This document shows, piece after piece, positions 53,349-64,000 of a DNA stretch of 64,000 bases. The DNA is from a virus. Taxonomy: Duplodnaviria > Caudoviricetes. A model generated the notes under the pieces. The model worked only from the letters and a program-made list of their open reading frames with translations. It did not search any database and had not been told where the DNA came from. The stretch covers positions 1-64,000 of the IMG/VR virus record IMGVR_UViG_2974601178_000001, one strand, 5' to 3'. Both the position numbers and the translations under genes were made by a program. Each line of letters opens with the position of its first letter. Positions within the stretch are counted from its first letter, which is position 1.

Positions 53349-53909
53349 TTAGAAACAATAGGGTGGGATGTAAAGGGACTCGTCTTCGTTGATGTTATCT
53401 TCTTTGGTGAAATCGTAACCTCTTCCCACCAAATCTTTGCCTTCTAAACGGTAATGGTCTCCACACCATTTAAGAGGTAGTTGCGTAGGGAAAGTTAAAT
53501 GAGATAAACCTTCATAATTAGGTGAACGTTTAACCCACACAAGCGGATTATCTCCTTCTTCAACCAAGTAACTTTCTTGCTCTTCTCCTTCCCTTTCATA
53601 TTCCCACTTAATCTGTAAGTCCTCTACTGCAGCAAGGTATAATTCTTCTGTAATCCTAGGCTTCACAACATTACAAGGCGGATTTTCTGAATGTATAAGT
53701 TGAGCTTCTCTTAACTTAGCTCTGTTCTCTGAAATACCCGAAACAAATTTATGACCAAAAAGTTCAACACCTTCAAAGAATTTAGCGTTTAGTAAAGAAC
53801 TAGAACTACATCCTGTTAGATGAGTATCCATCCTTGACCCTTTACCCTTTCCTACATAAAGCAGTTTTTCATCTGAGAATATACCATATACATAATACTC
53901 ATTATTCAT
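53349..53909 (-). CDS. GIY-YIG superfamily nuclease
   Basis: YYVY...YVGKG.G.R..H, E..LI....P..N. Confidence 0.8.
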   Translation of the reverse strand: MNNEYYVYGIFSDEKLLYVGKGKGSRMDTHLTGCSSSSLLNAKFFEGVELFGHKFVSGISENRAKLREAQLIHSENPPCNVVKPRITEELYLAAVEDLQIKWEYEREGEEQESYLVEEGDNPLVWVKRSPNYEGLSHLTFPTQLPLKWCGDHYRLEGKDLVGRGYDFTKEDNINEDESLYIPPYCF

Positions 53910-53910
53910 T

Positions 53911-54237
53911 TTATTCTCCTTGTTGACATTTCTTAGCTGCTAGATAAACCCCTTGACGAGTTATATCAATACCTAATTCCTCTTTTATCATATCCACTGC
54001 ACCAACAGCTCCATATTTATCACGGTAATACTTAGCTACACTGGGTTCAATCTTCCTACTTTTGCTAAACTTCTTACGAAAAGCATTTATCCATTCCAAC
54101 AAACTATCGTACCTACCTTCTAAATTATTATCCTTGAACCAGCAGTATTTAATACCTACTTCTGTTAGGCTGTAGTCCATAGCTAAACAATACTTTTCTA
54201 AATCTTCATAACTTGTTGCATCTGTTATCTTCTTCAT
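53911..54237 (-). CDS. hypothetical protein with C-terminal HTH-like motif
   Basis: IKEELGIDITRQGVY. Confidence 0.55.
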   Translation of the reverse strand: MKKITDATSYEDLEKYCLAMDYSLTEVGIKYCWFKDNNLEGRYDSLLEWINAFRKKFSKSRKIEPSVAKYYRDKYGAVGAVDMIKEELGIDITRQGVYLAAKKCQQGE

Positions 54238-54238
54238 G

Positions 54239-55819
54239 TTACCCTCTTTTACTTATAATATTATTTATTTTGGTGTTACATTCTTCTTCGGTAGGTTCTC
54301 TGCCCTTTGTTTTCCTAAAGTAACTCTTGAAATTCCTGAATTTAGCAGACTCCTTTTTATCAAGGTTAAACTTCTTAGCAAGAATATCTTTATTCAACCC
54401 ACCGTTGTTTTCTCTGTTGTCAGGGATGTACAGTGCAAGGGAGTTATCTATCACACAATTAGGGATGTAATTATCTTTTATGTAATGGGCAACATCAATG
54501 TCAGGCACAATAAATTCAATCTTCTCATTAGGTAAATCAAACCTACGTAAGGCACTTCGAGTACAAACTTGGTAACTGGCATCCTTATATTTCATATCTA
54601 TATACTTACCTTCGATATCAGGGAAATCATATAACACTTTCAGATAAGCTAATAAAGACTTATGCAAAGGAGAGGGTTTGTAACAAAACAAGCTTAACAC
54701 TTTCGTATAATGTGAATACCCATTCAGACCATGACACCCATAAGGGATGCACGTACCATAAGGAACACCTTCAAACATCACATCTTTGTACACTTTGGTC
54801 TTAGGAATATAGTTAACCGTGTAAAGGAAATCTTCTCCTAGCTTATCACAAGCCCTGTTCACATACTCTTGGTAGACATTAACAAACCCTTCATCAAGGT
54901 CATCCATACCATTAGGTAAGTGTCTATACTCTCTGTAAGAAAGCTTCTTTCCTGTCTTAAGATTAAATGCAGCATTGAGTAGACTACTTGTACACCCTGA
55001 ATCCACATTCTCGTCTGTTAGGTAGTATATGGTAACCCTTTCTTGATTTAAGTATTCAGACCTGATAGGCTTAACATCATTGAACACTTCAAAAGAAATA
55101 CCTTGTCTTTCCAGTAGACCAGATGTTAAAGTGTTATTTATCTTAGCACCAAGGAAAACAACTCTGTTAGAAGTTTCTATAAAATATCTGTAATCTAGAA
55201 CACTATAAGTTTGGTACACAACATAATCAGACATTTCCTGTCTTAATACAGTGTTAGTTTCTTTTAGTGCTTTAGCAAAATAAGTTATCTTCTTAGAACC
55301 GTTCCTTTCACCATCTTTCTTTAGGTTTTCTAAAGCGGTCTTACTCTTATCTAAAGTGAACACATTGTCATAGTCATCAGACTTAACTAACCTACTTTTA
55401 ATAAAATCACTTTCATTACTAAGAGAGATATCATGCATATTAAATACAGAAGGCAGTTCATCCACCACAACATTAAAACCTTCAAAGATGTGTGTCTCGC
55501 ATTTAGTAATAATATTCTCTAGATTGGCATGAGTGATGAGGTAAATATCGGAAGTGTTCTCTTTTAAGAGTTCTATAGTATTAACCATAACACCCTTGAA
55601 GTAGTCATCAGTTATAATACAAAAGTCCACACTGTCATCTATACTTTCTATAACTTGAGCTGTCTCATTAATCAACTCTTTACTTGGTGCAACATAAACC
55701 CACTTATTACCTTGTGGTATTTGTTCTTCTACAATCCATTTTATTGTTGAGTATGTCTTGCCCATTCCAGCGGATAATTCTAGGTACTCTATAACTCTAC
55801 TGTTGTCTCTTCTTGTCAT
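54239..55819 (-). CDS. SF2 helicase-like protein, putative origin-binding protein
   Basis: SAGMGKT, YVAPS, ITH, VVDELP, HGLNGY, QVCTRSALR. Confidence 0.75.
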   Translation of the reverse strand: MTRRDNSRVIEYLELSAGMGKTYSTIKWIVEEQIPQGNKWVYVAPSKELINETAQVIESIDDSVDFCIITDDYFKGVMVNTIELLKENTSDIYLITHANLENIITKCETHIFEGFNVVVDELPSVFNMHDISLSNESDFIKSRLVKSDDYDNVFTLDKSKTALENLKKDGERNGSKKITYFAKALKETNTVLRQEMSDYVVYQTYSVLDYRYFIETSNRVVFLGAKINNTLTSGLLERQGISFEVFNDVKPIRSEYLNQERVTIYYLTDENVDSGCTSSLLNAAFNLKTGKKLSYREYRHLPNGMDDLDEGFVNVYQEYVNRACDKLGEDFLYTVNYIPKTKVYKDVMFEGVPYGTCIPYGCHGLNGYSHYTKVLSLFCYKPSPLHKSLLAYLKVLYDFPDIEGKYIDMKYKDASYQVCTRSALRRFDLPNEKIEFIVPDIDVAHYIKDNYIPNCVIDNSLALYIPDNRENNGGLNKDILAKKFNLDKKESAKFRNFKSYFRKTKGREPTEEECNTKINNIISKRG

Positions 55820-55976
55820 TCAATAGCTCCAATAGCTCTTTATCATTGTGTTTCAAAAACTGTTCTAATATTAGTTCTACAGTTTCCCCTAAATTGTAAT
55901 AGTGTTCCCTCTCCTTTATCAAAGATAAAATATCTGCATGAGAAGGGTTGATGTAAATACGTTGTCTTTTACTCAA
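55797..55976 (-). CDS. 59-aa RHH-like protein (not in ORF track)
   Basis: TTG start after AAGGAG: MSKRQRIYINPSHADILSLIKEREHYYNLGETVELILEQFLK... Confidence 0.6.
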   Translation of the reverse strand: MSKRQRIYINPSHADILSLIKEREHYYNLGETVELILEQFLKHNDKELLELLNDKKRQQ

Positions 55977-56012
55977 TGGTGCTCTCCTTTAATTTATCCA
56001 CCTTATACATAT

Positions 56013-56041
56013 ATTATACATGTAAACTAATGTTATGTCAA
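56013..56041 (-). promoter_or_regulatory. sigma70 promoter TTGACA-17-TATAAT for the RHH-helicase operon
   Basis: Perfect consensus. Confidence 0.85.
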
Positions 56042-56049
56042 GTGATGTT

Positions 56050-56900
56050 ATAACGTATCAAAATATGTCGCAGCTTATACTTGTTAAAAGAGTCACTTTC
56101 TAAAAAGCCAATCCATTTTCATACACCAATCCTTGTAGAACTTTTCTCCCCTTTTGATAATATTTTACCTTTGTATTAAATTAACCATTTCTATAATTTC
56201 CATTCTACCAAAATATCCCTTATACAATCGGTGTATAAATTTCCAAAATACACTAACCTCCTTCAAAATAATACCATTCCAAAAGGAGCACTTCAATCAA
56301 AATATCCCACTTTAAAATATCATTATGGAATAAGGGTGTAACCTTTTGTTATAAGGTGTGTTGGGGATAGGGTGTTTTTGTTGAATGGGTAATTTTATAA
56401 AAAATTTTAAATCTACTTCTCGAAATGGGGGTGTACCTTTGGTATATATCTGTGGGAAAATATTTAACTACTTGATATAAAAGGGGTTATAGGTTGGAAA
56501 AGGTTATTTTGGGAAATATTAGAACTACTTCCGTTACTTGTTTAACGCTTCACCTCATACTAAAGTACCACTTCTGAGAATATCAAAATAATTTCCCAAT
56601 AGTCCACTTCCCACAATAATAACATCTTATTAACAAGTGATACCCTTATAACAAAACCTTTCAATAAATGGATTCCTTATTCCAAAAGGTAATTCAACAT
56701 AATATATCTTATAGGAAGTCATTACAATTGTTACAATATAACACTTCCCAAAGTATTATCCCCTTTTGTTTTATAATACCAATTACTACAATAAAACAAA
56801 GATTAACCCACTTTATGCAATTATTACATTGTGTTAAAAGTATTAACATTTAATCAATATTTATTCAATTAGTGTGGGAAGTGGGATAATTTTTGTAAAG
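56050..56900. other. non-coding origin-like region with (C/T)ACTT repeats
   Basis: CTACTT at 56413, 56468 and 56525, two preceded by GGGAAA(A)TATT; adjacent to the helicase operon. Confidence 0.4.
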
Positions 56901-57874
56901 TGGGGTAACTTGTGTTACTTTGTAACAAAGGGATGAGGTAGTGGGGTAGTTTGTGGCATTGCGTTTTTAAGGGGTTAAAAACCTCAACCCCAAAATCAAC
57001 CCCCCTTTCCCTCACATCCACCTATAACCTAATCAACTAACATTTGTTTACACGTAAACAAGAATAATCACCATTTGACACAACGTGTCGAAGTATCCCC
57101 TATATTGTTACTATGTAACAAAATCAAGCCCTATAAGCTTTTCAAGCTAATTGATAATCCTTATCATTACATAAAAACACCTTGATCAATGTAATAAAGG
57201 ATCACCCTTTTGATATAACATAACATATCAATTTTTATTATGTATCTATCTTAATATATAACTAATGCTTATAAGCTATCATTAATTATTGTTACATTAT
57301 TACATATTCTTATAATCAATATAGTGTATGTTTACTATAACTAGTTGTTATAATTATAAATCCTTGTAAATTGTTATATTATCACACTAAATTTTGTTGT
57401 TTAAGAGTGGCACAATCTTTGCTAATAGATACCCTTTTGTTGTATAGCAGATTAATACAACAAAGTAAACCCTTTAGCATAAATAAAAGCCTAATTAAAA
57501 TCTACTCACAATATGAATATTTATTCAAAAATGGTGCATATTAGCTAAAACCCTCTTTGTTGATAACAATTATCATTTATTCATGATATTGCATAAATAA
57601 GCACATATTTGCATAAAAGTGGTGTATGCATACAACGTGCCATCTTGGTTTGTGTGGTTATTTGCTCCTGTGAGCCATTCTGAGAAGGGTTTATTTTAGC
57701 TAAACAAGTGTACTGGGTAGCATTGCATATGCTCACAGGGGTGATTCTGTTGATACAAGCTGGAGGCCTTTATTTATAAGGGATTCCGAGGGTGCAAGGT
57801 ATTTTTAGGTGAAATGGTGTTATGCATAAAAGTGCATAGGATTTTGGCACGTGGTGGGGTAAATTTTAGGCAAT

Positions 57875-57901
57875 AAAAAGCCACCTTTTACAGTGGCTTT
57901 A
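57875..57901 (-). terminator. terminator of the early minus-strand transcript
   Basis: AAAGCCAC...GTGGCTTT with flanking A/T runs. Confidence 0.8.
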
Positions 57902-57936
57902 TTTTAAATCTGTTAACATTTTCGCTCAGGTAGTTT

Positions 57937-58302
57937 TTAAGCTAATTTTTCAATATCCCAGTTATCTTCCTCATAACTCGCATCTCTAGAAACAACTAAC
58001 GATTGACCACCCATTTTAACAACCCCGTACAAGTTGCCATCTTTTTCAACAATGTTTTTAACTGTTCGTTTTATCATATGTGTGTAATTATCCACCTGTG
58101 GGAAAGAGTTAGTACTGATATTAAATTTAACCATTTCAGACCATGTTAAGCTAACCTCTTGATTTTTCATGTTAGTTGTTTTTACTTCAGTGTTATTAAT
58201 TTTACCGTGTTTATCTTCAAAAGCTTTTTTATTTGCTTCAAATTCTGCATTCATTTTAGCAATGTTTAATAGTGAATTGTGAGCTTGTGATAATAAATCC
58301 AT
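57937..58302 (-). CDS. early hypothetical protein (121 aa; start MDLLSQ)
   Basis: SD GGAG before ATG at 58302; upstream promoter. Confidence 0.75.
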   Translation of the reverse strand: MDLLSQAHNSLLNIAKMNAEFEANKKAFEDKHGKINNTEVKTTNMKNQEVSLTWSEMVKFNISTNSFPQVDNYTHMIKRTVKNIVEKDGNLYGVVKMGGQSLVVSRDASYEEDNWDIEKLA

Positions 58303-59043
58303 GATATTCTCCAATTGATAATGATTCTCATTTAGAAGGTGCTTTTTGCCTTTTCCTTCCCACCCCTTAATAATAGCAAACCTGTAGAATAACACAACCC
58401 CTTTTAAGCAAATAAATCACACTTTTATCAAATTAATTCCAATTGATAACTATTATCATTACCTCCCACCAATACACAATTTTTATAAGGTGTCAACTTT
58501 TTGAAAAAGGATTAGATTTGCTAAAACGTCCTGTATGCAATTCTAAGAGGTGTTAACCTACAACCCTACCACTAGTATTAAAACATTTACTTTTTAGCAT
58601 ACAGCGATTTTATAAAAAGATGGCATTCTAATTGCATACAAAAATTTATGATATTCTGGCATACTATTTGCTACGTGTGCAACACTTTTGTAAATGGTAA
58701 CTGTTATCAAATGATAATAGTTCTCATCAACACATAAAAACATTATAACCAAAATCAAATCCTTTATAACAAAACGTTATATGTGAAAAATGGCTTTTGT
58801 GGTAGTGTTTACCCCCAGTTGAAAAGGTTACTTAGTTAAACAAGAATTACTCGCATTTGATAATAATTCTTATTTATAAAGATTTTTAACTATTTGATCA
58901 ATGTGCCTAGTTCCCTCTATAAGCCCCGCTAAGCTCCTCAAATTAATATTAATACAATCGTATAACATTGTTATCAAAAACGCTTCCAGTTCCTTTACAA
59001 TGAATATAACAGCCAGTTCAAACAAGTTTTAATAGTGTTAAAA

Positions 59044-60298
59044 TTATCTTTTAAAAGTGGTACAACTACGAGTATTTAATTCGCCTTTAAGTTTTACCCA
59101 CTTCGACCCACTTTCACACATAACTTTAGCCATTGCCATTCTATCAGATTCTATCTTTTTGCTAGCTTCAGATAATCCACTACCTATAAAAACCAATACG
59201 ATAATAGAAAGAGTAGTAATTGATAAAGTTGTGATTAAAGTTAAAGTTTTCATAATAATAACGCCTTTAAATTAAAAGCCCTTGCACCATTGCCCGAGCC
59301 GATAAATAGATAGTAAACTAGCTAAATTTTAATAACAACCCTTTTGAGCAAATTAAATCAAACTTTTTAAAAAATCCAACTCAAGCGCACAACCCGCAGC
59401 CAATCCAACACAACAACCACCACCAAAGCACACGGCACCATTAACCACATTGCACTTTTAACAAAGTTTAGCCCTTTGTGTTTAAATGTTTTCTTTTTTA
59501 TGTAATCTTTAGTACGTTTTGAATAAAATTCATTGTTTGTCATTGTCTTGGCCTATTGTTAAAAATTATCTGTTATATATATTAATTTTGTTTTAAAAGT
59601 TGTTTTATATCTTTGTTGTCCAGTTTTAAGACATCTTCGAAAATTGTTTTATCATTGCCATAATAAGTATGATCTTTAAAAATTATAGAAGACTCTGAAT
59701 AATTTAAATCAGTTTCGACTTCTATAACTTCTAGTTTTAAATCATAATTTAGTTTATGATCTTTCAATATATTATCAAAGTAGTTATAAAGCGCTTTTTC
59801 TACTTGTTTAAAGGTAAACTTATAATCGTTTTCTAATGGTAGTTTATTTTGAGTTGGTAACATAGCAACACCTATTTATTAAAAATTATCTCTTAAGGAA
59901 TAACCCGTATATTACAGGCTATTAGTTTAAAAGTAAACTTTTATTTATGAGCTAAATACGATTACCCAAACGATCAACAACCCTTTTTTGCAAATTAATT
60001 TAATTATTTTTTAAACACTCTCTTCTATTGACACAAGCGCCCCATTTTTAAACACCACTTTATAAAAAATATTATTTATATATAAACTATGCTCCCCTTC
60101 TGCGTTCAATTTTAACAAACTTTTAAAAGCGCTCAAGACACATTTAGCTTGTGTTTTACCCATTGCACTGAGTGAACGTTCTAAACCTTGCAAACGTAGC
60201 TTAGTAAACGTATCGGCCTCATCTCGTTTTAATTGTGCTTTAGCTTGTGCAATTTGTTGATCTTGTTGACTAGGAAAAAATGCTTTGAATAAACTCAT
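59044..60298 (-). CDS. early small proteins (59044..59253 membrane-anchored, 59582..59863, 60011..60298)
   Basis: Preceded by promoter-like elements. Confidence 0.65.
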
Positions 60299-60507
60299 AT
60301 TTTGCGGCCTGTTATAACGATTTTAAAAATTGTTTAGCTTTGCGGGCATTCTTGCGTTCACGTTTTAAGGTGTCGTGATCCTGTTTAAGTTGATCATTTT
60401 TTGTTTGTGGCTTGCCTTTTTTGGTTCGTGTCGTTTTGATAAAGTTTGTCATTTTTGGATGCCTTTTTTAAAGTTGGGAGGTGGCGGGAGTGTCCCGCCG
60501 TTGTTGG

Positions 60508-60948
60508 TTATTGATTGTCGTCTTCGTCATAATCAAAGTCTGTTTGCTCAAGTATTTCGCTTATTTCTTCCTGAACATCGGCATACATTGCATAAAAAGC
60601 TAGTGCCTGATGTAAACCAGTTAGCCCATCTTTTTTAAGAATACTTGATAAACTATCACCACAAAATATGTTATCAATTGCATATTCTGAATTAGCAGAA
60701 TATTTAAGTATATCTAAGTGGTAATGGTAGTAAATTGCATACTGGCTACCGTCTATTGTTTCATGTAACAAACTATCATTTACCAATTCTTCGATCTCAT
60801 CCCTGTTAAAACTAATTTGATCGCAATCTAAAGCTTCATTAATTGCATAGATAACACTATCCGTTAATGATAACACCGCTTGATGGTAGTTAAAATCAGA
60901 GTTTAAGTTTTCAACGTTTTCGTAAGATACAGTAGTTAAGTTTTTCAT
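60508..60948 (-). CDS. acidic Ocr-like (DNA mimic) protein
   Basis: Highly acidic; LHETIDG...YY resembles Ocr IH..AD..V..YY; acidic tail. Confidence 0.55.
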   Translation of the reverse strand: MKNLTTVSYENVENLNSDFNYHQAVLSLTDSVIYAINEALDCDQISFNRDEIEELVNDSLLHETIDGSQYAIYYHYHLDILKYSANSEYAIDNIFCGDSLSSILKKDGLTGLHQALAFYAMYADVQEEISEILEQTDFDYDEDDNQ

Positions 60949-61056
60949 AATAATACTCTCTTTTAAAATGTAAATTTTGCCTTAATTGGCGTTTTGTTTC
61001 AATAATGTAATTCTAGGTTAATTGGTATTTGTTGTCAATAAAAATTTTTAATTTAT

Positions 61057-62564
61057 TTAAATTAATTTTGCAGCAATAGCGCTAACTTCAGTAGCAACCC
61101 CATTCACAACGTCAAAGCGCTTTTTATTAAGTGGCTTAACACTTGGCATAGTAGCCGCCCATTTTTCGCCTGTAGCCTTGCTGCGCTCGTTAGATTCAAT
61201 TTTAACAAGCTGATCCGCCTTAACTGATTTGATGAAATTGCGTAAAGCTGTACGTGTTGGGAAGGTGAAAGTTTTCATGATTTGATCCTAGTTTGTTTTT
61301 ACTGGTCAACGGTATTGCTAACCAGTAATTTAATATTAATTGATAACGTTTAATATTGCAAGTAGTTTTTAAAAGTTTTCTGCAATTTGTTTTAAATAAA
61401 AATAACACTGATCAGCGTGATCTGATTCACTGCCACCGATTAAACTGATCGCGGTGTTAATAGCTACCTTTTGATCCTGTGTTAATTCTACCGTTGTAAG
61501 TTTTGGCACAATTGGTAATAAATCGGACTCTTTAAAATCAAAACCAGATTCTTTTAATATATAATTATAAGCATTGTTTAAAATCGCTTGCTTACTATCA
61601 AAAGGTAAACCGACTTGATCACCGTTAACCATCGCACCATGTTTGACATAGAATCGCCATAGTTTACCCCAGCGTACCGCACTGATATAAGTATCTTCAT
61701 TATTTTTAGCTAGTGTGATTGATTGATCAAAATCTGATAATTTCATAGTTTAAAACCTTTTTAATAATGTGATTGTTTGATTGAGTGTTAATTGTAACGG
61801 TTGGCGTTGGTGGTGTCAACCGCTTTTTATGGTTTATTTTACTAAGTGGTAAATTAGGTCTTCTATATCTATTATGGTAAAATCTTCACTAGGGAAAAGT
61901 CTACAAGCTATATTAAAAACATCTCTTGTGTTTTTGTTCCCTTTTATCAACTCATTTTTAACCAAATTAATAATACCAGTGTTTAATCCATAAGTTTTGC
62001 AAATATTGCCTTTCATAATCTTAAACCTTAATTTTAAGCCTTGGCGGTATTGCCTAGCCGATAAATACATAATAGCACAATGTTTTTAATTTGTGCAAGT
62101 GTTTTATTAAATTAACTGAGAATTAATGATCTTTGATCTTTCCTTTTCATAGATGACAACGCTTGAAAAATCATTTTTCATAGTGCCTGTGTGGTTTAAT
62201 CTATCCAGTTTACTAAGTGCTAACCATCCACTAACATAAGAATTTAAACGGTCTTTTAAAAGTTGACAATCTTTGTTTAAACTAACTTGATCTTTTAATT
62301 TGTCGATCTCTTTTTGGTAATGATCTTTTAACATCTGCAAATTATCCATTTTTAAGTCCTTATTTATTTATATTCAAAATCAACTTGATCAAACTCGTTT
62401 ACCAATTGCACTTTATAAAATCCACCATTTAAGCCAACCTTATGAGCTTGATCCGCTGGTACGTTGTAACGTGTAAATGGTGCGCTTGTTTCATATTCAA
62501 AAGTAATAACTGTAAACATATTTAAAAACCTTGTGTTAATTGTTCGTTGTTTCAATACGTACAC
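61057..62564 (-). CDS. early small hypothetical proteins (61057..61278, 61369..61746, 61834..62070, 62107..62349, 62364..62564)
   Basis: Short ORFs, several with their own TTGACA promoters. Confidence 0.65.
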
Positions 62565-62605
62565 ATTATAAGGATATTTTATCCGCTGTCAACAAGTAAA
62601 AACAA

Positions 62606-63112
62606 TTATTTTAAATATTTTTTAAACCTTGTGCTATAAATTTGCCAGCTGTGATCATCATCTATAACATTTTTAAAAACACTATTCCTTATATTAGGGT
62701 ATTTGATCACCGTTGTTAATGTGTAATCTTTTTTACGTAGATTAAACCGCTCTTGCAAACGTTCAATTAATAAAGCGTGATCCGTTGGTGTTGGTGTCCA
62801 GTCATTGCAACAAAGATCTTTTATACTTTTATCTAATTTGTATAATTCAACTTTAACATTTTTATCGTGCTTGATCCCTCTTGCTTTTAATTCACGTTTT
62901 AAAAGTCGGTGTCGCTTGGCTAAGTATAACAATTTATTTCTAAAAAATTTAACATGCCCCGCATTTAATGTGTAATTTGCTGGTATATCCTTTTGTTTGA
63001 AGCGGTGCGGATGTGTTACTAATTCATTAACTATTCTAGGCAACTCGCGCCATTCTGCAATTAGCCATTGGTCGGTTAGATCGCTTGGATCAATCGTATT
63101 GATTCTAGTCAT
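62606..63112 (-). CDS. denV: pyrimidine-dimer DNA glycosylase (T4 endonuclease V family)
   Basis: MTRIN...LTDQWLIAEWRELPRI, Y.L..GHVKFF.NKL.YL..R...L..E...RG. Confidence 0.93.
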   Translation of the reverse strand: MTRINTIDPSDLTDQWLIAEWRELPRIVNELVTHPHRFKQKDIPANYTLNAGHVKFFRNKLLYLAKRHRLLKRELKARGIKHDKNVKVELYKLDKSIKDLCCNDWTPTPTDHALLIERLQERFNLRKKDYTLTTVIKYPNIRNSVFKNVIDDDHSWQIYSTRFKKYLK

Positions 63113-63222
63113 AATAAGCCTTTGTTTAAGTTGTTCCAACACGTACAAAGTTATATTATTTTTAAGGTAGTGTAAACAGTTTTATTAAAAGAATTATTTT
63201 TGCAAATAGTTGGTGATCTTTG

Positions 63223-63515: not shown

Positions 63516-63742
63516 AAGTTTAAATTAATCCACAAAAGCCCTTGCAATTAAAAGTGTAAGGGCTTATACTTCCTAACATAGTAAATTGGATTGATTGAAG
63601 ATATACAGGCCCCCTGCTTGTCATTCCTGCGAGCGCCTGTATGCGATTTTAAGAGGGCGTTTTAATAAAGGTAGTTTTGCACAAGTGGATTGAGATCACC
63701 TTATACGGTGTTATACATGCTGAAGGGTAGCGTTTAGAAGAG

Positions 63743-63790
63743 TTACACACAGGCTTATTTAGTTATCCACAGGTAGAAAAGTTATCCACA
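63743..63790 (+). promoter_or_regulatory. DnaA box array
   Basis: TTATCCACA at 63763 and 63782; TTACACACA at 63743. Confidence 0.8.
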
Positions 63791-64000
63791 ATAAAATTAA
63801 TTTAATTTATTTTTAAAAAAGTATTGTAATCTTATATTAGGTGCGTATAATGGAATACATAGAAACAAGCATGCGAACTTTAGCGAAAGCGGGAACGGTG
63901 GAGAATAAAACACCGAGGCTGCGTGAAATTTAAAATGTTATGATATAACATAACAACTATTTTGCTATAATATAACATCTCATATATTTTGATACAGTAT

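Follow-up and report, generated by a model that had tools for sequence, protein, structure and literature searches.

Phages are known to borrow nutrient-sensing regulators of their hosts for their own transcription, as in cyanophages with NtcA and PhoB boxes and in Shiga-toxin prophages with a Fur-repressed stx1 promoter. Sites for host factors also accompany iterons in phage and plasmid replication origins such as lambda ori and P1, and the chromosomal locus datA titrates DnaA. Here we analyse a 64,000-nt stretch of viral DNA (the window; bases 1–64000 of the 120,295-bp IMG/VR record IMGVR_UViG_2974601178_000001, which is rated complete), in which a largely noncoding island at positions 56830–59040 carries Fur boxes together with sigma54 promoter motifs. 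Like the cyanophage and stx1 cases, the island appears to borrow a host nutrient-sensing regulator for phage transcription; those cases have one or two boxes before a recognisable gene, whereas the island is multi-site, combines Fur with sigma54 and mostly lacks open reading frames (ORFs). It is apparently an undescribed, and unusual, variant of host-regulator control of phage DNA, and our preferred reading, held with slightly less than even confidence, is that it consists of promoter-operator units that would tie an accessory early cassette to the state of the host.

At the level of single sites, two described promoter types are closest. As in Fur-regulated promoters, the boxes follow the 7-1-7 or 19-bp consensus, and several lie over predicted promoter elements or immediately after them; unlike the usual Fur promoters, the island has seven boxes in 1.7 kb and one small gene, with several boxes located downstream of the inferred start or having no gene. 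The small RNAs GlmY and GlmZ have overlapping sigma54 and sigma70 promoters (PMC3045617), and, as in such sigma54 systems with enhancers, the island motifs show GG and GC at the exact spacing and a conserved element about 100 nt upstream. Unlike these systems, the motifs occur in convergent and tandem sets, and the phage encodes no enhancer-binding protein. No account of arrays of Fur boxes, or of clusters of sigma54 promoters, in phage genomes was found in the literature searched, in which sigma54-dependent phage promoters are essentially undescribed.

A preliminary description of the window had proposed about seven Fur boxes and four sigma54 −24/−12 sites in some 2.2 kb with one short gene, and both counts were borne out. 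We searched the whole 120-kb genome with the 7-1-7 inverted-repeat Fur consensus TGATAATNATTATCA, counting mismatches over 14 positions, and used 1000 dinucleotide-preserving shuffles of 56830–59040 as the chance test. The island holds seven Fur boxes with one to three mismatches to the inverted repeat TGATAATnATTATCA, and the same boxes match the GATAATGATAATCATTATC class of 19-mer at 13–16 of 19 positions. Four of the genome's five sites with at most one mismatch are located in the island, all within 57152–58458, as are six of the ten with at most two mismatches; the seventh island site has three. The shuffles gave means of 0.001 and 0.08 sites at these two thresholds, and none of the 1000 reached the observed counts. 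Boxes 1 (TGATAATCCTTATCA, 57152–57166), 2 (57561–57575), 3 (58316–58330) and 4 (58444–58458) each have one mismatch, boxes 5 and 6 form an adjacent pair at 58695–58726 with three (58695) and two (58712) mismatches, and box 7 (58858–58872) has two. Their spacing is irregular, and candidate sigma70 hexamers overlap boxes 1, 2 and 7.

The same genome was scanned on both strands for exact matches to the sigma54 motif TGGCAY-N5-TTGCW. Its only three exact motifs are all in the island and all on the plus strand, at 57408–57423 (site a, TGGCACAATCTTTGCT), 58621–58636 (site c, TGGCATTCTAATTGCA) and 58657–58672 (site d, TGGCATACTATTTGCT); the shuffle mean was 0.009, and the observed count was again reached in 0 of 1000 shuffles. 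A fourth motif with one mismatch (site b, TGGCACGTTGTATGCA, 57627–57642) is on the minus strand, in the direction of the genes. The motifs match the GG at −24 and the GC at −12 with fixed spacing (TGGCAC-N5-TTGCW). Sites a and b face each other, with Fur box 2 and a palindrome of the ARG type between them, while sites c and d are in tandem.

Chance matches in AT-rich DNA, or functionless relics, would be an obvious alternative in a region of 27–35% G+C, and several further labels given to the island (ArcA, LysR and additional ARG boxes) are in fact weak. This explanation is refuted for the Fur and sigma54 motifs by the shuffles, by their concentration within the genome and by conservation above background, and we regard it as negligible: their density lies far above that of shuffled AT-matched DNA, and AT-richness fails to explain counts that none of the shuffles attained. 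On density and conservation, then, the refuting conditions set out in the preliminary description come out for genuine sites. Sigma54 holoenzyme and Fur of the host very probably bind in the island.

Judged by its sequence, the phage is an HM1-like Pseudoalteromonas myovirus, marine and of lytic type. The nearest named relative is Pseudoalteromonas phage HM1, of the genus Qingdaovirus, a non-T4-like myovirus (PMC5498523), and PH357 is more distant. A 140.9-kb contig (L005) aligns to 56250–59018, with 92.4% identity at the 342 motif positions compared to 78.1% in the noncoding background and 75.4% in coding sequence, so that conservation of the motifs exceeds that of the background. None of the four sigma54 motifs differs in this contig (16/16 each, 64/64 positions). 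Fur and sigma54 motifs occur also in the related contigs L006/L007, L008, L009 and L010/L011: Fur box 3 is found at the same place in all of these and in L005, box 4 is conserved in L005 and L008, site b is identical in L005 and L008, and at site c the spacer is changed in L008 with the −24 (GG) and −12 (GC) elements kept. At the place of box 1, L005 has a perfect box and HM1 a degenerate one; box 2 is degenerate in L005, which at the position of boxes 5 and 6 has about 130 bp of inserted sequence carrying further boxes.

The only gene in 55977–59043, at 57937–58302 on the minus strand, encodes a protein of 121 amino acids (aa) with no known family, and the earlier claim of a single short gene in about 2.2 kb is thereby confirmed, since no other small ORF is conserved as coding. 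Substitutions between this gene and its L005 counterpart are biased towards the third codon position (20/25/48 by position). Its sigma70 promoter (TTGTGT, 16 nt, TGC-TATTAT; 58365–58398, minus strand) is found also in L006, L009 and L010, with the pattern TTGnnn, 16 nt, TGC-TATTAT across relatives. In every relative, the minus-strand order is sigma70 promoter, Fur box 3 and, directly after it, the ribosome-binding site of the 121-aa gene, placing the box in the gene's leader. A bidirectional intrinsic terminator conserved in relatives follows the gene (57877–57900), agreeing with the one previously placed at 57875, and sigma54 site b is located after it.

The distance between sigma54 motifs and Fur boxes falls into a few values. 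From the end of the −12 element to the box, the gap is 25 nt in L006, L007, L010 and L011, 22 nt between site d and boxes 5 and 6 in the window and also in L005, and 50–51 nt both in the unrelated contig L058 and at site b, where box 2 lies 51 nt downstream. The contigs L006/L007, L009 and L010/L011 have an exact gene-direction sigma54 motif whose counterpart in the window has decayed to a TTGACA-type sequence; in L009 and L010 this promoter stands 140–190 nt ahead of the 121-aa gene. Some lineages have a −35-like hexamer, TTGAC, just before the sigma54 motif.

A third component is an 18-nt element (consensus CCTGTATGCGATTYTAAG), which is not a dyad and has three copies, all on the plus strand, at 57667, 58530 and 63636, in the same positions in all relatives. 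Copy B (CCTGTGAGCCATTCTGAG, 57667–57684) adjoins sigma54 site b at a distance of 26 nt. Copy A (CCTGTATGCAATTCTAAG, 58530–58547) lies about 100–115 nt upstream of the inferred start of site c, and about 100–150 nt upstream of the inferred starts of sites c and d together, which is the distance of a sigma54 enhancer. In L006 and L007, two extra small genes (64 aa and 63 aa) are preceded by a unit that consists of the element, a sigma54 motif and a Fur box. A unit in which the element is followed, after about 85 nt, by TGGCAT..TTGCTACGTGTG recurs in an unrelated 49-kb contig (L018), where the likeness extends to the bases after the −12 element. No exact match pointing to a host origin of the element was found in GTDB representative genomes. 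In another unrelated contig (L015:880–1030), an inverted near-copy, with CGCAT in place of the central GCGAT, lies close to the element.

The fixed spacing of promoter and operator, the constant position of a box beside the ribosome-binding site and the occurrence of the modules ahead of genes in relatives argue for working promoter-operator units. In our model, the sigma54 promoters would be fired by an enhancer-binding protein, which we take to be the host's because the phage encodes none, with the 18-nt element placed like an enhancer and sigma70 promoters also taking part. A Fur box close behind each promoter would allow Fe-Fur to block initiation or early elongation, and transcription of the cassette would be gated both by host iron status and by the activity of the sigma54 activator. 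In all carriers the output would include the 121-aa gene, to which some relatives would add extra small genes and this phage noncoding or antisense transcripts; for the orphan units, noncoding or antisense RNA and a long leader toward the helicase operon to the left are the candidates. The direction and products of transcription, and its physiological purpose, we infer. Genes for Fur, an enhancer-binding protein, sigma54 or a sigma70-family protein were not found in the phage genome, nor was a single-subunit or phage RNA polymerase gene, the latter being a weak negative as control genomes were likewise blank for that family. If the model holds, a lytic-type marine phage would read iron, through Fur, and the sigma54 activator to time an accessory cassette, iron being a major limiting nutrient for marine hosts. 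A minor alternative in the preliminary description, that the sites report host state, comes close to this.

Several observations weigh against promoter-operator units. Three of the four sigma54 motifs face away from the genes in this phage, and no conserved ORF lies downstream of Fur boxes 1 and 2, of sigma54 sites a and b or of the ARG-type box, in line with the earlier remark that many sites have no gene to regulate; neither a conserved ORF nor a structured RNA was found downstream of any of sites a–d in this phage. Seven Fur boxes would be excessive for simple repression of one 121-aa gene. The number of boxes is kept while their positions turn over (L005 is without box 2 and has gained about three), and one box in L006 stands at a gene end. 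A search for RNA products of the orphan promoters gave neither a conserved structure nor an Rfam family: an Rfam scan of 55500–59600 at E ≤ 10 returned sub-threshold noise only, and an alignment fold of 57640–57905 supports only the terminator. Reading this segment together with the 18-nt element as an RNA was rejected, given a weak alifold consensus (−7.9 kcal/mol) and a long stem that is not kept in L005 or L008. Hidden small genes were rejected as well, as every ORF of at least 25 aa in the noncoding part is interrupted by stops or indels in L005 and lacks a third-position bias, and the window holds no remnant of the small genes of L006.

Sites without a conserved ORF are what would be expected of a decoy. 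Multicopy Fur boxes derepress the Fur regulon in the Fur titration assay, and the low-abundance factor sigma54 forms stable, non-firing complexes with promoters. The preliminary description had read the island as a protein-free sponge for host regulators. On such a reading, the replicating genome, in hundreds of copies, would titrate Fur and scarce sigma54 holoenzyme without any phage transcript, derepressing host iron uptake and shutting down sigma54-dependent host programmes. The closest known parallels are the assay itself (FURTA, named in PMC2189734) and the non-productive or intragenic sigma54 binding sites of E. coli (PMC4591121). Such E. coli sites and datA resemble the island in having high-affinity sites that lack an obvious transcription unit and can hold a factor inactive; they differ in being host loci, while the island is phage-borne and amplifying, and no phage-borne amplifying titration locus of the datA kind is described in the literature searched. 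The near-consensus quality of the sites (four of seven Fur boxes with one mismatch, and a perfect one in L005), the maintenance of box number despite positional turnover and the gain of boxes by local insertion in L005 also fit titration. Against this, a sponge would need neither the fixed spacing nor the position of box 3 beside the ribosome-binding site; the same modules precede genes in relatives; each genome offers only seven plus four sites; and HM1 does without the cassette. What stands of the sponge proposal is that the sites are genuine and conserved, while their geometry favours promoter-operator units over a protein-free sponge, which we consider possible but unlikely. Should decoy action also occur, it would amount to protein-free viral rewiring of host regulons.

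Comparable clusters in other viral contigs bear on the same question, as a lead and no more. Exact sigma54 motif pairs within 30 nt occur at no fewer than 120 IMG/VR loci (L076–L195; examples are L073:4900–5300, L081, L107 and L123), against about 5 expected by chance on a rough estimate, so that the island is not a one-off. Among the matches listed, these loci range from 0.31 to 0.64 in G+C, 78 have at least three and 27 at least five motifs within 500 bp, many with 5–12 motifs over a few hundred bp, and the sigma54 motifs are wholly outside ORFs in 44% of cases, compared to an ORF cover of 85%. In the same set, the density of exact DnaA boxes is raised about 30-fold within 1 kb of sigma54 pairs (0.163 vs 0.005 per kb), and Fur boxes are about 4-fold denser near the pairs than elsewhere in those loci. 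The site-d motif with its downstream ACGTGTG forms a class of 35 viral loci with a G+C of 0.37 to 0.60 and similar sequence after the motif, many of which have adjoining DnaA-box arrays or a Fur box. DnaA-box arrays stand directly upstream of the sigma54 motif in L058 and L049, and in L073 about 12 sigma54 motifs follow one another within 360 bp, leaving too little room for each to act as a promoter of its own, which, with the excess of pair loci, speaks for titration. A broader proposal is that noncoding 'landing pads' for sigma54 holoenzyme, DnaA and Fur form a widespread, undescribed class of phage element that acts at least in part as amplifying decoys, tying up scarce host factors and reprogramming the infected cell with no phage protein involved; this proposal, with the island as one member of the class, seems to us doubtful, about as much so as titration by itself or slightly more.

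The unrelated contig L058 (positions 100–900) has a layout like that of the window, with two tandem and two opposed sigma54 motifs and four DnaA boxes, followed by a sigma54 motif, a Fur box 50 nt later, a sigma70 promoter and a gene. Its repeated AAGTCATTGATTTATAAGG text matches the IHF core, and IHF cores were not clearly enriched.

Fur-box pairs are rare in IMG/VR (19 loci), and several of the loci hold arrays. Arrays of 7–16 Fur-type boxes were seen in noncoding DNA of the unrelated contigs L035 (9780–11472), L033 (10760–11320) and L029 (2950–3240), with about 12 boxes in 1.7 kb of noncoding DNA in L035 and 16 in L033, whose array lies at the contig end and repeats in tandem every 89 bp. 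The arrays of L035 and L033 are denser than the island and would also suit decoys. In low-G+C contigs, clusters of Fur-like palindromes lie directly upstream of small-terminase (Terminase_2) genes (L023:1759–1893, L027:180–304 and L037:1681–1803), and such clusters beside terS or terL may serve packaging (as pac sites) and not Fur binding. Because several adjoin terS or terL, we treat the Fur-like clusters elsewhere as a lead only and not as independent support for decoys, and they are a caution for Fur calls made from motifs alone.

The distribution of the cassette within the family decides against several further functions. Of this region, HM1 and the HM1-like contig L020 have only the left block (56388–57198, about 83% identity); in place of 57200–59040 they have about 500 bp of unrelated sequence, and the match resumes at 59041. 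The Fur/sigma54 cassette (about 57150–59040) is thus accessory and dispensable in the family, and it always travels with the 121-aa gene. Since it is absent from HM1 and L020, it is not an essential origin or packaging site. The idea that bound host proteins ratchet in or shield a first-injected DNA end finds no support, with HM1 lacking the cassette altogether, and the analogy once drawn with T5 terminal DNA is inapplicable because the relatives are HM1-like myoviruses. A T5-like terminus was rejected also because the end of the HM1 record that falls here is a 24-nt assembly overlap and is contiguous in L020; the 119-bp end repeat of our record is likewise only an assembly overlap. PH357 has a syntenic 2.2-kb noncoding gap with a sigma54 motif, Fur-like boxes and two near-perfect ARG-like boxes, all in a different order. 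HM1, without the cassette, and the relatives that bear it form a natural experimental pair.

The left block itself is where a role in replication would be sought. A noncoding block shared with HM1 (56300–56950) carries iteron-like GTGGGRTA repeats, four of the genome's eleven, and the segment 56300–57120, with about 83% identity to HM1 and locally 92–98% to L005, lies ahead of the helicase-like operon and also holds inverted copies of CCCACTT and a pair of TGTTAC-N3-GTAACA palindromes, making it a candidate origin or control region. More broadly, the island might be part of an origin or control one, with host factors shaping or activating it, for example by transcriptional activation. Consistent with such a role are the genes that lie downstream, one of 59 aa and one helicase-like of the DEAD/ResIII type (PHROG 2467), the repeats and conserved palindromes of the HM1-shared block, and the density of DnaA boxes near sigma54 clusters in unrelated loci, including the arrays of L058 and L049. 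Lambda ori and P1 resemble the island as AT-rich noncoding blocks beside a replication gene with repeats and palindromes. Unlike them, the Fur/sigma54 part is dispensable in the family, has irregular repeats and contains no exact DnaA box, the genome's four exact boxes including a pair at 63763 and 63782; family-wide presence and initiator repeats or DnaA boxes, the marks of an origin, are missing from the cassette, and the Fur boxes are irregularly spaced. We therefore consider replication or nucleoprotein control improbable for the island.

The constant company of the boxes and the 121-aa gene, found together in all carriers and neither of them present in HM1, with one box always beside the gene's ribosome-binding site, would also be explained if the palindromes were bound by a phage protein, possibly the 121-aa product, in autoregulation or in mimicry of Fur sites. 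However, mismatches down to 0–1 in 14 to the 7-1-7 pattern of host Fur would be an odd coincidence for another protein, and the 121-aa protein has no recognisable DNA-binding domain. It has no Pfam or PHROG family, atlas hit or Foldseek match, and its AlphaFold2 model is poor (pLDDT 65). We consider a phage regulator slightly less probable still than a replication function. The protein has six homologues with 60–83% identity, all in phage-like contigs; searches with it in viral, metagenome and genome contig collections brought no further relatives, and none were found through the helicase-like neighbour either.

Other motifs of the island were more sparsely represented than had been thought. 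A single perfect ARG-type palindrome (TATGAATATTTATTCAAA, 57512–57529), the only perfect one in the genome, fits the 18-bp ARG-box consensus TNTGAATWWWWATTCANW and is identical at 18/18 positions in L005. A second ARG-like box with two mismatches (56852–56869) overlaps the text described as ArcA-like and is conserved in L005 and in HM1 and L020. The two single boxes are 660 bp apart, and no tandem pair about 3 bp apart, the usual layout of ArgR operators, was found; the four or more ARG boxes counted earlier thus reduce to one perfect and one two-mismatch box. The ArcA label is unsupported too, the text at 56844 being a two-mismatch match to one consensus, of which the genome has three. By contrast with these labels, the TGTTAC-N3-GTAACA palindromes proposed earlier are present in two exact copies, at 56913–56927 (also in L005, HM1 and L020) and 57106–57120 (also in relatives), out of three in the genome. 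The repeat ATAAC-N5-GTTAT is also exact, at 57337 and 58766 (two of the genome's three), and the latter copy had been called LysR-type, a label that is unsupported as T-N11-A is too generic. Both patterns were defined from the region itself. The density of short palindromes in the island is the maximum of the genome, 2–3 standard deviations above shuffles.

Every gene flanking 56830–59040 is on the minus strand. To the left, at 53349–55976, lie the 59-aa gene and the helicase-like gene, preceded by a perfect sigma70 promoter at 56041–56013; to the right, at 59044–63148, is a series of small ORFan early-type genes. Beyond these early genes is a second noncoding gap (63516–64210), which contains the third copy of the 18-nt element (63636–63653), conserved in HM1 (L003:5082), the DnaA pair and a strong sigma70 promoter (TTGTAA, 17 nt, TATAAT, near 63824–63852) with no obvious ORF, and which may be an origin. 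The first gene of the early minus-strand block (62606–63148, minus strand) gives an endonuclease V-type N-glycosylase match (PHROG 1183, E = 1e-47), a T4 DenV-like UV-repair enzyme.

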